Origin: a virus
Lineage: Duplodnaviria; Heunggongvirae; Uroviricota; Caudoviricetes
Direction: 5' to 3' (one strand)
Length of the DNA stretch: 28,932 nt
Virus record (IMG/VR): IMGVR_UViG_2740892230_000022
Below are positions 8,349 to 17,167 of this stretch, piece after piece. The position numbers and the translations under genes are program-made. The first letter of the stretch is position 1; each line of letters opens with the position of its first letter. A model generated the notes under the pieces. It did not search any database and was not told the DNA's origin. It saw only the letters and a program-made list of their open reading frames with translations.

Positions 8349-8541
8349 GCAACTCCGCGTGGAAAATCAGCAACGCAATCAGGACGGAGAGGCCAGACGT
8401 GAACAGCTACGCAACGATATTGCAAAAGATGAATGCGCCCACGCTTTGCCTGACGCTCGTTTTACTGACAGGTTGCGCAGGCACGCAGAACGCGCCACGG
8501 CCAGCGCCGTCAGTCCGGCTTATACCGCAGACGCTGACCAT
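8349..8541 (+). CDS. Rz/LysB-like i-spanin, internal fragment (second allele)
   Basis: QLRVENQQRNQDGEARREQLRNDIAKD... overlaps the LysB fragment at 6156..6389 (QLRAENQQRNQDGEV) with substitutions. Confidence 0.55.
8429..8541 (+). CDS. Rz1/LysC-like o-spanin lipoprotein, embedded in +1 frame of LysB (3' partial)
   Basis: MNAPTLCLTLVLLTGCAGTQNAPRPAPSV: signal peptide with lipobox LLTGC, proline-rich, fully inside the LysB reading frame. Confidence 0.6.
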
Positions 8542-8708: not shown

Positions 8709-8886
8709 ACCGGTAACGCCTCCCCCCTTCCCTGACACTCCCACATGGGGAAATCTCGGTATATGGGGCGACCGCCTTCTGGATGCACTGGAAACCTGTA
8801 ACGCGGATAAACGGGCCATTGAATTACTGGAACAGCGCAGGCTGCAAAGACTGAACAACGAGGACAACAACCATGCTGAAAACTGA
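8709..8886 (+). CDS. spanin (LysB or LysC) C-terminal fragment
   Basis: PVTPPPFPDTPTWGNLGIWGDRLLDALETCNADKRAIELLEQRRLQRLNNEDNNHAEN*; stop 8884-8886 overlaps the gpR start at 8873. Confidence 0.4.
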
Positions 8887-9448
8887 TTCCCTGCGTGAAG
8901 CCATGACCCGTTCATGCCGATGGTGTCAGGCCAACCCGGAAAAATTCACCATTTTCGTGGAGAGCGGCAACATTGAAACGACCGGAGAAACGCCCTCGTT
9001 TGTTTACCGCTATCAGATGGTGATGTTTGTCATGGATTACGCCGGAGAGCTGGACGACCTCACGCTGCCGCTGCTGGCGTGGTTATCCGAAAATCAGCCA
9101 CAGTTGTTGCTCAATCCGGAGCGTAATCAGGACATCAAATTTTCCGCCGTTATCAATGACGATGACAGCGCCGATCTCCTGTTTACGCTCCCCCTGCGGG
9201 AACGCGTTCGCATCACGCGCAGCAGTCAGGGCACACCGCAGGCAGAACACCTGCCGGAGCCAAAACCCCGCCTGCCATCTTCCGAAGGCGACTGGTCGCA
9301 TGTATTCCAGGNNNNNNNNNNTACGCGCAACAGTCAGGGGACACCGCAGGCAGAACACCTGCAGGAGCCAAAACCCCGTCTGCCCTCTTCCGAAGGCGAC
9401 TGGTCGCATGTATTCCAGGATGTGACGTGGGGTGAAAGCGATGGATAA
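8873..9448 (+). CDS. R: P2 gpR-like tail completion protein (composite across the N10 at 9312)
   Basis: MLKTDSLREAMTRSCRWCQANPEKFTIFVESGNIETTGE... resembles the P2 R N-terminus; position before S-V-W-J. The roughly 27-aa internal duplication is an assembly overlap. Confidence 0.65.
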   Translation: MLKTDSLREAMTRSCRWCQANPEKFTIFVESGNIETTGETPSFVYRYQMVMFVMDYAGELDDLTLPLLAWLSENQPQLLLNPERNQDIKFSAVINDDDSADLLFTLPLRERVRITRSSQGTPQAEHLPEPKPRLPSSEGDWSHVFQXXXXTRNSQGTPQAEHLQEPKPRLPSSEGDWSHVFQDVTWGESDG

Positions 9449-10076
9449 GGCATTCACCCGCGTGGATGAAACCTTTGAGGCCATCCGCGACAGCCTGAAT
9501 CAGCAGGCCATCAATAACATCGCCAGAAAGCTGGCACAGGATTTACGCCGCGCCCAGCAGGCGCGTATCCGGTCACAGAAAGCGCCGGACGGGACCGCAT
9601 GGACACCACGCAGACGCCGCGTAACCCGGATACAGGAACGTATTCGCTTTATCTGGAATAACGAAGCACGCACGCTGAAAAACTGGCATCACGACACGGG
9701 GAAATACGGGCGAACCATTACCGGGTGGGATGAGGATAAAAACAATATCCGCACGTTTTACCGGGATGACATCGACCGTTTTCTGGAAATACGCACCCGG
9801 CGCATCAACCAGGACAGCACAAAGCGCGTCCCCATGTTCGTAAAACTGCGCACCGCCCGCTACCTGAAAGCCGGTGCAGATGCTTCCGGTGTGACGGTGG
9901 GTTACAGCGGCGTGGCCGCACGTATTGCACGCGTTCATCAGTTCGGTGAGCGCGATCAGGTTTCGCCGGGCATTTTCACCGATTACCCGGTACGTGAGCT
10001 GTTGGGTATCAGCCAGGCAGATGAACGCCTGATTTATAACACCGTGCTGGGCCGGATTGCGGAGGCTGTACGGTGA
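9441..10076 (+). CDS. phage virion morphogenesis / tail completion protein (gpS-like), longer than P2 S
   Basis: ATG 9441 (alternative GTG 9432). IRSQKAPDGTAWTPRRRR resembles the Phage_tail_S core. Located between R and V. Confidence 0.55.
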   Translation: MDKAFTRVDETFEAIRDSLNQQAINNIARKLAQDLRRAQQARIRSQKAPDGTAWTPRRRRVTRIQERIRFIWNNEARTLKNWHHDTGKYGRTITGWDEDKNNIRTFYRDDIDRFLEIRTRRINQDSTKRVPMFVKLRTARYLKAGADASGVTVGYSGVAARIARVHQFGERDQVSPGIFTDYPVRELLGISQADERLIYNTVLGRIAEAVR

Positions 10077-10654
10077 GCGCAGAACTCATGCGACTGCTGA
10101 GCAACATCATCCGCACCGGAATCATCTCTGAAGTTGATGAGAAGTCCTGGCTCGTGCGCGTTCGCAGCGGCGAACTGGAAACAGGCTGGCTGCGCTGGAA
10201 CACCACGCGCGCGGGAGCCTTCAATGTGTGGCTGCCGCCATCACCAGGCGAACAGGTGGTAATTGCCTGCATTGGCGGCAACCCGGAAACCGCCATGATA
10301 ATCGGCAGCCTGTGGAGTGATGCCATTCCGGCACCCGGCAAAAGCCTGAAAGAAATCGTGGTCAGCGCGCCGGATGGCGCGGTGTTCCGCTACGACGCGG
10401 ACGCAGGCGCACTGAGCGCCAGCGGCATGAAAACAGCCACCCTGCAGGCATCCGTCAGCGTGACACTGGACACGCCCGTCGTGGAATGCACAGACCTTCT
10501 GAGAACTGCGATGCTTGACGTCACAAAAGGAGGAAAGATGAGCGGCAATATCACGCACAGCGGCGGCAACTTCACCTCAAACGGCATTACCGTGCATACG
10601 CATAAACACGGTGGCGTGAAAGGTGGCAGCGATTCGACAGGAGGCCCGCAGTGA
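10073..10654 (+). CDS. V: P2 gpV-like baseplate spike protein
   Basis: GTG 10073 overlapping the S stop. ...GNITHSGGNFTSNGITVHTHKHGGVKGGSDSTGGPQ* matches the gpV C-terminal pattern (HTHKH, Gly-rich tail). Confidence 0.8.
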   Translation: MSAELMRLLSNIIRTGIISEVDEKSWLVRVRSGELETGWLRWNTTRAGAFNVWLPPSPGEQVVIACIGGNPETAMIIGSLWSDAIPAPGKSLKEIVVSAPDGAVFRYDADAGALSASGMKTATLQASVSVTLDTPVVECTDLLRTAMLDVTKGGKMSGNITHSGGNFTSNGITVHTHKHGGVKGGSDSTGGPQ

Positions 10655-13668: not shown

Positions 13669-13774
13669 NNNNNNNNNNGCCGGTAACGCCTCCCCCCTTC
13701 CCTGACCCACCCACATGGGGAAACCTCGGAATATGGGGCGACCGCCTTCTGGATGCACTGGAAANNNNNNNNNN

Positions 13775-13994
13775 TGAGGTTGTGACGGACCACATATGCA
13801 CCAATACGCAGCGCCAGCGGAAGATCGCCGCAGTCAATCGCCCACACCATCAGCGTGGCAATTACTTCGTCCTGTTGCCCGCCGTCAGTCTCCAGCGTTC
13901 CCTCAATCCAGCCGGAAAAGTCCNNNNNNNNNNCACTTCATCCTGCTGCCCGCCGTCAGCCTCCAGCGTTCCCTCAATCCAGCCGGAAAAGTCC
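13775..13994 (-). CDS. gpM-like terminase small subunit, two overlapping internal fragments
   Basis: Minus-strand DFSGWIEGTLE(T/A)DGGQQDEVIATLMVWAIDCGDLPLALRIGAYVVRHNL resembles the recalled P2 gpM core (LPWVNGVLELGKGAQDDILMTVMLWRLDTGDIAGALEIARYALKYGL). Separated by the N10 at 13924. Confidence 0.4.
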
Positions 13995-14056
13995 NNNNNN
14001 NNNNCTGAACTGGATAAGAGAATAGCCGAACTGACACACCAGACGGGAGTAACACA

Positions 14057-15299
14057 ATGACCAGTAAGAACTTTGCACTGATTACAGCCATGACACAGGC
14101 TGAACTGACCCGGAAAGTGAATGAATATCTTGCGAAGGGGTGGCATCTTCAGGGGGACACACGGGTAGCTTACGAGCCCGGCACCCCGTGGTATCTCATG
14201 CAGGCCATGGTGGCCGATGGTGCCACCGAGACGCCCTCTGAGCCATTACCAAACAACAAGACGCCGGAATGGTACTACGTGGTTGTGCTTGCCGGGCAGT
14301 CCAACGGCATGGCTTACGGTGAAGGGCTTCCGTTACCGGATTCTTACGATGCTCCGGATCCGCGCATTAAACAGCTGGCGCGCCGCAGTACGGTAACCCC
14401 GGGTGGAGAGGGTTGTACGTATAACGACATCATCCCGGCTGACCACTGTCTGCATGATGTGCAGGATATGAGTACGCTGAATCATCCGAAGGCGGACCTG
14501 AGCAAAGGTCAGTACGGCTGTGTGGGACAGGGACTTCATATTGCCAAAAAACTACTCCCGTATATCCCGAATAACGCGGGGATCCTGCTGGTACCATGCT
14601 GTCGTGGTGGTTCGGCATTCACTCAGGGCGCGGAGGGAACATTCAGTACGACCACGGGGGCCAGCCAGGATTCGGCGCGCTGGGGTNNNNNNNNNNCGGG
14701 TAAGCCGTTATATCAGGACCTGATCGCACGCACCAAAGCGGCATTACAGAAGAACCCGAAAAATGTGTTGCTGGCGGTGTGCTGGATGCAGGGCGAATTT
14801 GACATGAGCGCTGCCACCTACGCACAGCATCCGGACCTGTTCACGGCCATGCTGAAGCAGTTCCGTACTGACCTTTCCGGATTTAACGCGCAGTGCCATG
14901 GCGGCAGTGCTGCAGTTTTACCGTGGATTTGTGGCGACACGACGTATTACTGGAAAAACACATACGGCACACAGTATGACTCCGTCTACGGCGCGTACAA
15001 AAACAGGGAGAGCGACAACGTTTTCTTTGTGCCGTTCATGACCGACGGTAACGGCAACAACACGCCCACCAACTTACCGGCAGAAGACCCGGATATTGCT
15101 GATGCAGGTTATTACGGCGCGCAATCCCGTAGTAATGGTAATTGGGTATCGTCAAATCGTCCGACACATTTCAGTTCATGGGCGCGCAGGGGCATTATTT
15201 CGGATCGCCTGGCAACCGCTATTCTGAACGCAGTTGGTCGAACCAGCGCCTTCATCAGCGGTACCGCACCGGAAATCAAACCCTCGCCCGGCGGCGACA
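14057..15299 (+). CDS. nanS-p: NanS-p-like sialate O-acetylesterase paralog (DUF1737 + SASA), 3' partial
   Basis: ATG 14057 overlaps the stop of the preceding fragment. MTSKNFALITAMTQAELTRKVNEYLAKGWHLQG..., then YVVVLAGQSNGMAYGEG and the same esterase core as 3447..5814, with many substitutions. Confidence 0.8.
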
Positions 15300-15545: not shown

Positions 15546-17167
15546 TTAGCTGTCGGCGAACTTCAGGCCAGTGATCATCGCGCACTTGCCATAGTCTTCA
15601 ACGACATAAGCGTCATTGATGGACTGGTAGGTGGCGATGCGGTTGTATTCCGGCTCGTCTTTCATCAGGCGACGCATTGAACCTTTCTGCCAGTAAATCG
15701 ACAGGTTGTTGAACGAGGTGATAAGCATCGTTGCATCCGGGAAGAACGGCGCAAGGAACACGCCCAGCNNNNNNNNNNTTCGTCTTTCATCAGACGACGC
15801 ATTGAACCTTTCTGCCAGTAAATTGACAGGTTGTTGAATGAGGTGATCAGCATCGTTGAATCCGGGAAGAACGGCGCAAGGAACACGCCCAGCCCGCCAA
15901 TGGTGCGCGATGACAGGATGAGCTGCCCGGCAAGTAATTCCGCATTGGGATTCTGGCCGCTGATGCTGTTCAGCACGGGCAGACGCAGCGAGTTAAACAG
16001 GTTGCGCCCCATAATCACCGCGAGGTCGTCAGCTTCCTTGTGCCATTCATCCAGCAGGGATGAGCGCGCATCCTGTACCAGAGCATCGGCATTCGCATAC
16101 TTACCCACGTGCGCCACAGTGTTGTCCATGTTGCGGGAGGTCAGCGTCACGTCATTCATTACGCGCTCGCTGGCATCGGTTCTGATGTGCTCCAGCCAGC
16201 CCACGTTAACGTCCTGAAGCAGCTTGTTGGTGTGAAAATCAGACTCGTAGGCGTGGGATGTGCCGTTAAAGCCAATCATGATGCGATCAAGCGCTACCTG
16301 CCGGGCGATCTGTGTACTGATACGGGACTGAAAATCGCTGTGGGCCGCCCAGGTATCAAGCTGTGGGTACGAAATAAAGGTATCGTAGTTCACCTGTTCG
16401 CACTGGTACTGACGAGACTTCATATCGATCACGTTATTCGGGTTACGGCGTTTGATGCCGTCATAACTGCTATTCGTGCGCGCAATTGGCCCGGTGGTGT
16501 CCGGGAGGATTTTTTCGCCTTTCTGGTCGGTCACGCCNNNNNNNNNNCTGAAGTTGGACTCATCCGCGTGAGACGTGCCGTTGAAACCGATCATGATGCG
16601 ATCAAGTGCCACCTGTCGGGCAATCTGTGCGCTGATGCGGGACTGAAAATCAGGGTGTGCCGCCCAGGCATCAAGCTGCGGATATGAAATAAACGTGTCG
16701 TAGTTCACCTGTTCGCACTGGTATTTGCGGTTTTTCAGATCAACCACGTTATTCGGGTTACGGCGTTTTGTGCCGTCATAACTGGTATTCGTGCGCGCAA
16801 TCGGCCCGGTGGTATCCAGGAGGATTTTTTCGCCTTTCTGGTCGGTCACGCCGATCACGTTAATTCTTTTCGTAAATTCGGTACTTTCCTTTGAGGCGTT
16901 TTCAAAACGCTGCTGCACCGCGGGTTCCACGGTAAATCGCGATACCAGTGCAGATACCGGGATATTGTTAAGCGACGCCTGCTGCGCCANNNNNNNNNNT
17001 GTAAATTCGGTGCTTTCCTTTGAGGCGTTTTCAAAACGCTGCTGTACCGAGGGTTCCACGGTAAATCGCGATACCAGTGCGGAAACCGGGATATTGTTAA
17101 GCGACGCCTGCTGCGCCATATAGCAACCCAGCTTGTTGCGGGTAATATCTGACATCACCAGATTCAT
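15546..17167 (-). CDS. N: P2 gpN-like major capsid protein (composite across three N10 joins)
   Basis: ...SRFTVEPSVQQRFENASKESTEFT...GFNGTSHA...LLQDVNVGWLEH...FFPDSTMLITSFNNLSIYWQ...YVVEDYGKCAMITGLKFADS* matches P2 N. Start ATG 17165-17167 after AAGGAG. Confidence 0.85.

Follow-up and report, generated by a model that had tools for sequence, protein, structure and literature searches.

The viral record IMGVR_UViG_2740892230_000022 of IMG/VR (Caudoviricetes), whose whole stretch of 28,932 bases is here called the window, holds at 13679-15299 parts of a spanin gene, lysC, and the start of a gene of the NanS-p family of sialate O-acetylesterases, into which the last codons of lysC directly run. 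The three pieces concerned (13679-13764, 14005-14686 and 14697-15299) all match, at 100% identity, the P88-like prophage of Escherichia coli 55989, a P2-like prophage that served as the reference locus (L001, NC_011748.1 2151404-2170085) and whose gene order in this region is holin, endolysin, lysB, lysC, esterase, R, S, V. The stretch at 14057-15299 is very probably the first two thirds of an intact esterase gene belonging to the late operon of such a P88-like prophage. About one third of P88-type E. coli prophages have this gene, between their lysis and tail genes, and its presence is linked almost perfectly to one allele of a segment of the capsid gene gpN. The enzyme family itself is not new, and RefSeq already lists the genes under generic names; in a literature search we found no paper that puts nanS-p or sialate esterase genes in P2-like phages, and none that notes a link between esterase and capsid allele. 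We describe below the locus, its distribution among prophages, the domains and linkage of the esterase, and the roles that may be considered for it.

Reconstruction of the lysC-esterase-R locus

The window is made up of 35 fragments, each split from the next by exactly ten N. Against the reference these fragments fall on both strands and are non-collinear, so that the N10 joins represent no physical adjacencies; each 55989-type stretch is stored once, shared stretches sitting within the fragment of another variant or paralog, and some of the N10 runs stand in for one single reference base, as between 14686 and 14697. The window is a de-duplicated patchwork whose fragment order and strand are not genomic, and its content comprises pieces of at least two P88-like prophages plus lambdoid prophages. 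Because the fragments lying between the two lysC pieces are unrelated ones of gpM, on the minus strand, the order in the window differs from that in the genome, where 13679-13764, 14005-14686 and 14697-15299 map to L001 8888-8973, 9001-9682 and 9684-10286, respectively.

The short reading-frame tail at 14007-14060 translates as ELDKRIAELTHQTGVTQ followed by a stop, and its TGA (14058-14060) overlaps the esterase ATG at 14057, as ATGA, just as an earlier note on this DNA, made from the letters alone, had described it; a GGGAG ribosome-binding site lies inside lysC, 7 nt before that ATG. The piece at 13680-13763 translates in the same frame as PVTPPPFPDPPTWGNLGIWGDRLLDALE and opens with the proline-rich periplasmic stretch PVTPPPFPDPP. 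Both are 100% identical to one continuous open reading frame (ORF) of 55989, L001 8775-9056, in which they are separated by 27 nt (TCNADKRAI and the first base of the next Ala codon). This ORF starts within lysB (L001 8507-8914), in another frame, and runs past the lysB end, encoding 93 amino acids (aa) that begin with MNAPTLCLTLVLLTG, continue with CAGTQ past the lipobox (LLTG/C) and end in PVTPPPFPDPPTWGNLGIWGDRLLDALETCNADKRAIAELDKRIAELTHQTGVTQ, that is, a lipoprotein signal followed by a proline-rich body. The protein matches Pfam PF23793 (E 2e-14) and PHROG 3001 / 456 'Rz-like spanin' (7e-20), and LysB, the i-spanin, matches PHROG 214 (E 4e-41). The tail is residues 77-93 of LysC, an Rz1-like o-spanin, and not of the i-spanin LysB, while 13679-13764 supplies residues 39-66 of the same protein; the spanin character suspected in the earlier note for both pieces, and thus for the gene upstream of 14057, is hereby established. 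LysC is predicted to act with LysB in disrupting the outer membrane. The RefSeq/PGAP version of the 55989 lysC (L001 8868-9056) is a 62-aa product that starts with IPQTL at a non-standard codon and has no signal peptide; the lipobox-bearing start (MNAPTLCLTLVLLTGC) is at L001 8775, 93 nt upstream of the RefSeq one.

The esterase gene of 55989 occupies L001 9053-10933 and encodes 626 aa (WP_000202153.1, annotated 'DUF6645 domain-containing protein'); 23 nt past its stop comes R, and then S, V, W, J, I, H and G. Three Pfam domains, all above their curated cut-offs, span the protein: DUF1737 (PF08410) at aa 4-53, with 27.5 bits for the full protein and 27.6 for 14057-14686 (cut-off 24), SASA (PF03629) at aa 75-271, with E 6e-13 for the full protein and 3.6e-7 for 14697-15299, and DUF6645 (PF20350) at aa 477-587, with E 2e-19. 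The NanS structure 3PT5 matches aa 69-388 (E 1e-123) and the lectin-like jelly-roll of the NanS-p C-terminal domain, 6YP6, matches aa 431-623 (E 4e-30), and both Ser82, the serine of the GQSN motif, and His368 are invariant among the aligned homologues. The gene is nearly whole in the window, continuing beyond 15299 at 4955-5158, 5369-5709 and 5939-6019, with R from 6043 (Table 1); relative to the reference, 1 + 21 nt are missing and one position is mismatched. The junction of nanS-p with R that had been proposed for 5939-6145 is indeed there, in the form of the last 26 esterase codons and the first 34 of R, with the 23-nt spacer between them. The esterase has neither a signal peptide nor a membrane segment. 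A scan of the gene and its flanks gave no promoter-like or terminator-like sites above chance, and the base composition of the gene equals that of its flanks, with no anomaly in the GC (guanine plus cytosine) profile, which together argue that the gene is transcribed as part of the late operon and coupled to lysC in translation.

Esterase-bearing and esterase-free prophages

The alternative arrangement is also present in the window. The stretch at 8709-8886, whose likeness to the tail had been pointed out before, is the same lysC gene in an esterase-free variant (8709-9311): the two are shared through ...AACGCGGATAAACGGGCCATTG, identity ending with ...CNADKRAI, and they diverge exactly where fragment 14005 begins. 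The esterase-free LysC ends in ...ADKRAIELLEQRRLQRLNNEDNNHAEN, its stop at 8884-8886 overlapping the R that starts with the ATG at 8873, and likeness to the 55989 type returns about six codons into R; no complete genome matches every one of the window's fragments at 100%, the closest for 8709-9311 having 99.7% identity. Among 5,426 complete E. coli genomes the lysC-esterase junction occurs in 376 (~7%) and the direct lysC-R junction in 688, so the two prophage orders envisaged in the earlier note, spanin-nanS-p-R and spanin-R, both exist. The former count comprises the genomes that hold at least 80% of fragment 14005-14686, a coverage that demands the P2-type N-terminus, since lambdoid similarity begins only at query base ~259, and all sampled matches at this coverage are annotated beside lysC or lie in a P2-like prophage. 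Carriers include ST131 (JJ1886) and the enteroaggregative 55989.

As to the type of phage, the DNA from gpN to lysC is 95.8-96.1% identical to that of P88 and its named Xuanwuvirus (Peduoviridae) relatives (95.8% to P88 over 3.9 kb) and follows the P2-type late gene order from portal through tail fibre, whereas P2 gpN itself (PDB 7JW1) matches the prophage capsid protein only at E 8e-81. The named Xuanwuvirus phages (P88, 503458, 520873, P884B11, Chuche and others) share this gene order and the P2 arrangement of overlapping lysB and lysC, but all of them lack the esterase and have lysC joined straight to R. The best-matching database records are three (two vB_EcoM prophage predictions and one ST131 prophage), at 97.5% over gpN to lysC; at the inspected junctions of the vB_EcoM-705R2 and ST131 prophage records, the predictions are cut within the esterase gene.

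Scanning IMG/VR with the P2-type N-terminal domain (N-domain) recovered 33 loci, every one of which has the order gpN-gpM-gpL-X-holin-endolysin-LysB-LysC-esterase-R-S-V, and lysC, esterase and R are placed in the same way in three further complete genomes checked; a junction that recurs in 376 genomes and in 33 of 33 loci is not due to chance. Seven of these loci come from distant P2-like lineages (capsid protein 62-72%, R ~56% and LysB 25-29% identical), whose endolysin is of the lysozyme type and which carry an additional ORF of 54 aa in front of R, and this sharing of the site across lineages indicates an old, recurrent occupant rather than a one-off insertion. The distant lineages are E. 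coli prophages too, a protein 99% identical (P0016) being named 'sialate O-acetylesterase [Escherichia coli]'; a megablast search with one of them, L037, against the phage collection gave no match. In L037 the 54-aa ORF is hydrophobic and lies between esterase and R (10036-10200), and LysC and esterase in this lineage are 3 nt apart with no overlap. The P2-type N-domain was absent from the GTDB species-representative genomes, which were scanned for it, and its occurrence seems limited, at strain level, to prophages of E. coli and its close relatives. A word-indexed protein search with the 68-aa N-domain returned truncated or frameshifted fragments only, and an exhaustive search of representative proteins gave 7 matches only, because full-length proteins cluster with lambdoid representatives.

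Table 1. Features of the two prophage variants in the window, with their matches in the 55989 reference locus (L001)
Feature	Position in window	Strand	Match and remarks
LysC N-terminal part, with signal peptide and lipobox LLTGC, inside the lysB 3' half in another frame	8429-8541	+	Exact match to L001 8741-8887
LysC residues 39-66, proline-rich; 13679-13705 also encodes, in another frame, the end of LysB (last 8 codons and stop)	13679-13764	+	100% to L001 8888-8973
LysC C-terminal 17 codons and stop (14007-14060), with GGGAG site	14005-14060	+	100% to L001 9001-9056
Esterase codons 1-210: DUF1737 (aa 4-53), linker, first half of SASA with GQSN Ser82	14057-14686	+	100% to L001 9053-9682
Esterase codons 212-411: second half of SASA/NanS core, including His368	14697-15299	+	100% to L001 9684-10286; one reference base lost at N10
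Esterase codons ~412-479, at the 3' end of another paralog's fragment	4955-5158	+	Exact match to L001 10287-10490
Esterase codons ~480-593, C-terminal lectin-like domain; fragment ends lambdoid	5369-5709	+	L001 10491-10683 and 10685-10831, one mismatch
Esterase last 26 codons and stop	5939-6019	+	100% to L001 10853-10933
R, first 34 codons, 23 nt past the esterase stop	6043-6145	+	100% to L001 10957-11059; PHROG 65 'tail terminator', connector category
Esterase-free variant: LysC residue 39 to end, overlapping the R start	8709-9311	+	lysC joined straight to R, as in 688 complete genomes
gpM (terminase small subunit), two allelic fragments	13775-13923 and 13934-13994	-	L001 6536-6388 and 6447-6388; not part of the feature
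gpN A-type allele, travelling with the esterase	15779-16537	-	L001 6042-5285 at 99.3%; peptide ...ILPDTTGPIARTNSSYDGIK...
gpN B-type allele, of esterase-free prophages	16548-16989	-	L001 5580-5148 at 90.5%; peptide ...ILLDTTGPIARTNTSYDGTK..., as in the esterase-free ST131 prophage

Domain exchange and linkage to the capsid gene

The domains of the esterase differ in their relationships. Identity of the N-domain is 52-100% among P2-like copies, 75-88% among lambdoid ones and 28-39% between the two groups; over the N-terminal 90 aa only Peduoviridae copies reach 80-100% identity, lambdoid ones 42% at most, and DNA similarity to lambdoid alleles (87%) sets in ~207 nt into the gene. The SASA core of P88-type alleles is 85-95% identical mutually, 66-72% to distant P2-like copies and 85-89% to phage 434 / PPyecE, and their C-domain is 34-41% identical to distant P2-like copies and 85-88% to phage 434 / PPyecE. 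Divergence of the N-domain parallels that of the phage backbone in three P2-like lineages, with SASA and C-domains exchanged with lambdoid alleles, and as judged from these sequence comparisons the N-domain follows phage type and the other domains are shuffled. The types also differ in the beta2-beta3 loop of the N-domain, which reads YEPGTPWY, with the aromatic W45/Y46, in the P2 type and is there 4 residues longer than in the 434/1717 type (TPYTLMQ), the phi24B-type proteins having STAGYGAEF with Tyr42 at the same loop. An AlphaFold2 (AF2) model of the N-domain (mean pLDDT 72) has strands at 3-11, 30-40 and 43-55, a helix at 14-26 and then a disordered linker, and places the 4-residue insertion at the tip of the beta2-beta3 hairpin. 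Sequence searches of the PDB with both N-domain types gave no significant match and no solved DUF1737 structure, and Foldseek with the AF2 model gave no significant match either (best E 0.15, to generic beta-alpha-beta-beta folds such as dodecin).

The capsid proteins of an esterase-free ST131 prophage and of 55989 are 95% identical, and 13 of their 18 differences fall at aa 85-164. The 55989 signature at these 13 gpN positions (SIIMSQTASTYDH; A type) is found in 25 of 25 esterase-positive viral loci, while the 42 esterase-free ones comprise 39 with the other signature, 2 with a third and 1 of the 55989 type (Fisher p 2e-17, or 2e-14 on 58 distinct haplotypes); this single exception, L074 (IMG/VR contig 2571042621_000028), combines an esterase-free junction with an A-type gpN. 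In complete genomes the gpN segment is bimodal, 376 records having an identity of at least 95% (at least 99% in 372 of them) and 685 one of 80-95%, totals to be compared with the 376 esterase-positive and 688 esterase-free genomes. Spot checks found the gene in all five A-type genomes (55989, AVS0542, JJ1886, EH031 and EC20) and missing in all four of B type (ST131-86, ETEC1717, FHI_NMBU_03 and F3113). The association is based on compared genome totals, 9 spot checks and 67 viral contigs, and both gpN alleles occur in the window (Table 1), paralleling the two junction variants.

Linkage to esterase status is not uniform along the late region. The coefficient r2 reaches 0.8 in gpN (nt 5400-5850), 3.3 kb upstream. 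In gpL and the 3' half of gpM, which have many four-gamete sites, it amounts to 0.13-0.41, and in lysB to ~0.3; past the junction it drops below 0.1 over 150-300 nt (150 nt into R and beyond), and at 3.3 kb downstream it is ~0.02. When aligned to P2 gpN, whose fold has been described, the linked gpN segment corresponds to the E-loop, the spine helix and the P-domain that comes next, and not to the A-domain at the capsomer centre. A second, weaker linkage island, at L001 7950-8400 (3' part of the holin gene and endolysin; mean r2 0.56-0.66, distinct haplotypes), is parted from the junction by low linkage in lysB.

Possible functions of the esterase

Lambdoid NanS-p enzymes are active Neu5,9Ac2 esterases encoded by strongly induced late genes, and in the published model they provide a growth advantage on Neu5,9Ac2 (review PMC8065619). 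The P88-type protein resembles those of 933W (L0105/z1466) and phi24B (vb_24B_21 = gp84) in its DUF1737-SASA-DUF6645 architecture, in the conserved Ser and His, and in being the product of a late gene beside the lysis cassette. It differs from them in belonging to a myovirus-type Peduoviridae prophage, in its place after the spanins and before the tail gene R rather than between Q/stx and the holin gene, and in an N-domain that forms a separate subfamily. With the chromosomal NanS (YjhS) it shares the catalytic core, and unlike it has a DUF1737 and a lectin-like C-terminal domain; NanS itself is periplasmic and belongs to the sialic-acid regulon rather than to the late proteins of a phage. By close homology, and in keeping with the work published on lambdoid phages, we infer that the P88-type gene specifies a late-expressed, lysis-released sialate O-acetylesterase. 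Such an enzyme would be made during lytic growth only, together with lysis and virion proteins, and, having no signal peptide, would leave the cell only upon lysis, once holin, endolysin and the LysB/LysC spanins break it; outside, it would take 9-O-acetyl groups off mucus sialic acids, as experimentally shown for lambdoid NanS-p.

Some points weigh against this account of the locus and its product: the pieces are nowhere physically joined in the window, their arrangement being deduced from complete genomes that match them at 100%; along the reference path, stretches of 27, 1, 1 and 21 nt are missing from the window or differ in it; and enzyme activity is known for lambdoid alleles only, that of the P2-like allele being predicted from homology. 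The window also has lambdoid nanS-p pieces (3381-5928) and lambdoid early genes, and the 87% DNA identity of the SASA and C-terminal parts to lambdoid alleles might suggest that the 14057 paralog came from a lambdoid (Stx-type) late region, an outcome that the earlier note had allowed for, with the spanin tail an unrelated or chance ORF joined to it by the patchwork. This we judge extremely improbable, because a single unbroken fragment (14005-14686) carries the tail together with the first 630 nt of the gene, the N-terminal part is of the Peduoviridae type with lambdoid similarity setting in only behind it, the sampled matches all lie beside lysC or in a P2-like prophage, and every complete genome and viral contig examined has the order lysC-esterase-R. 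The location next to lysis genes in both P2-like phages (after the spanins) and lambdoid ones (before the holin gene) would also be explained if the esterase had an accessory part in lysis, with the host envelope as its target. Such a role is very unlikely for an esterase without signal peptide or membrane segment, whose catalytic core is so close to the sialate esterase NanS and whose gene is missing from two thirds of otherwise near-identical prophages; moreover, the peptidoglycan of E. coli is not known to be O-acetylated.

What the N-domain does is a separate matter, on which the gpN linkage bears. According to a 2026 preprint (bioRxiv 10.64898/2026.04.10.717836), the DUF1737 of phi24B gp84 is a capsid-binding domain, which forms hexamers on capsid hexons with Tyr42 as anchor, the protein being processed. 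The N-domain of the P88-type esterase resembles it in its modelled fold of one helix, three strands and a flexible linker, and in being encoded alongside virion genes; it differs in the loop that corresponds to the anchor loop STAGYGAEF, and phi24B, unlike the P88-type phages, is a T=9 podovirus. That the N-domain is bound to phage type, and that an island of linkage lies in gpN, count in favour of docking, and we raise, as a tentative and rather doubtful proposal, that DUF1737 might dock the esterase on the P88-type capsid. Equally speculative is the wider form of this idea, in which DUF1737 would be an exchangeable capsid-docking module, the N-domain of the P88-type esterase would be co-adapted to one allele of the surface-exposed E-loop/spine-helix segment of gpN, and the catalytic and lectin domains would be freely swapped with lambdoid phages. 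Several observations speak against tethering to the capsid. Phages 434, with a lambda C/Nu3/D/E head, and 1717, with an HK97-like protease-capsid fusion, share an N-domain subtype at 75% identity, and a strict match of N-domain subtype and capsid type in lambdoid phages was rejected on this ground; the linked gpN segment is E-loop and spine helix, whereas phi24B gp84 binds the A-domain pore; the loop equivalent to that of Tyr42, longer by 4 residues than in the 434/1717 type, is in sequence unlike both lambdoid types; and patchy recombination can keep two rarely replaced markers associated without selection. We give somewhat better than even chances to a soluble cargo ('moron') enzyme, released at lysis to the benefit of surviving lysogens, whose N-domain would have no role in the virion and whose link to gpN would reflect the common descent of a sub-lineage, not yet broken by recombination. 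This agrees with the published growth-advantage model, with a gene dispensable enough to be missing in 688 genomes and all named Xuanwuvirus phages, with the occurrence of one N-domain subtype together with two unrelated lambdoid head modules, and with a moderate regional background of linkage (r2 0.2-0.6). This alternative is harder to reconcile with an r2 that falls off within a few hundred nucleotides downstream yet is high in gpN, 3.3 kb upstream, across gpM and gpL with their many four-gamete sites, and with an N-domain that diverged along with the phage backbone of three P2-like lineages as SASA and C-domains passed between P2-like and lambdoid alleles.

NanS-p esterases have been discussed as fitness factors of Shiga-toxin phages, and P88-like prophages too have a member of this family as a standard optional gene, so that the number of nanS-p alleles in a strain should not be taken for that of its lambdoid prophages. 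The strict pairing of esterase and gpN allele, along with the dependence of the N-domain on phage type, provides a concrete and cheap test of the docking proposed for DUF1737, in a capsid family, that of P2, which is well understood and for which structures and genetics exist. If capsid display were true, a head-borne enzyme would be common to at least three groups of E. coli phages, namely phi24B-like podoviruses, lambda-like siphoviruses and P88-like myoviruses, and the co-inheritance of the gene and the capsid allele despite recombination between them would be explained.

Other parts of the window and of the prophages compared deserve brief mention. Beside the lambdoid nanS-p pieces (3381-5928), the window has lambdoid early genes; 3381-3655, followed by 3666-5928, is the start of a lambdoid nanS-p paralog (MSIKHYDVVRAASPSDLAEKLTHKLKEGWQPYGGPVAITPYTLMQAV...) with an N-domain of the phage 434 type, variant DNA-methylase fragments lie upstream of it at 127-3321, and the 3' end of 5169-5928 is lambdoid downstream region. 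The lysis genes vary among esterase-free prophages: in the P88-like prophage of E. coli ETEC1717, with B-type gpN, a GH108 endolysin replaces the M15 peptidase (L170 9375-9920) and no spanin genes are annotated between endolysin and R, and in that of E. coli O157:H7 F3113 the holin gene (L172 8997-9320) bears the annotation of a pseudogene that has an internal stop. Among phi24B-type NanS-p proteins, P0018 (730 aa, E. coli, nr) has an internal duplication of ~85 residues, TTYFWKQKNESTYQ...HFSSWARR occurring twice, which could reflect either a genuine tandem duplication or faulty assembly. Three ENA metagenome contigs (L041-L043) encode a 689-aa SASA + DUF6645 esterase, P0083 (gene at L041 9001-11070), that lacks DUF1737 and has a different N-terminus of ~110 aa; it lies at the end of a Mu-like prophage, after a tail-fibre assembly gene and a Gin-type invertase, and represents a further phage type with an N-terminal module of its own.

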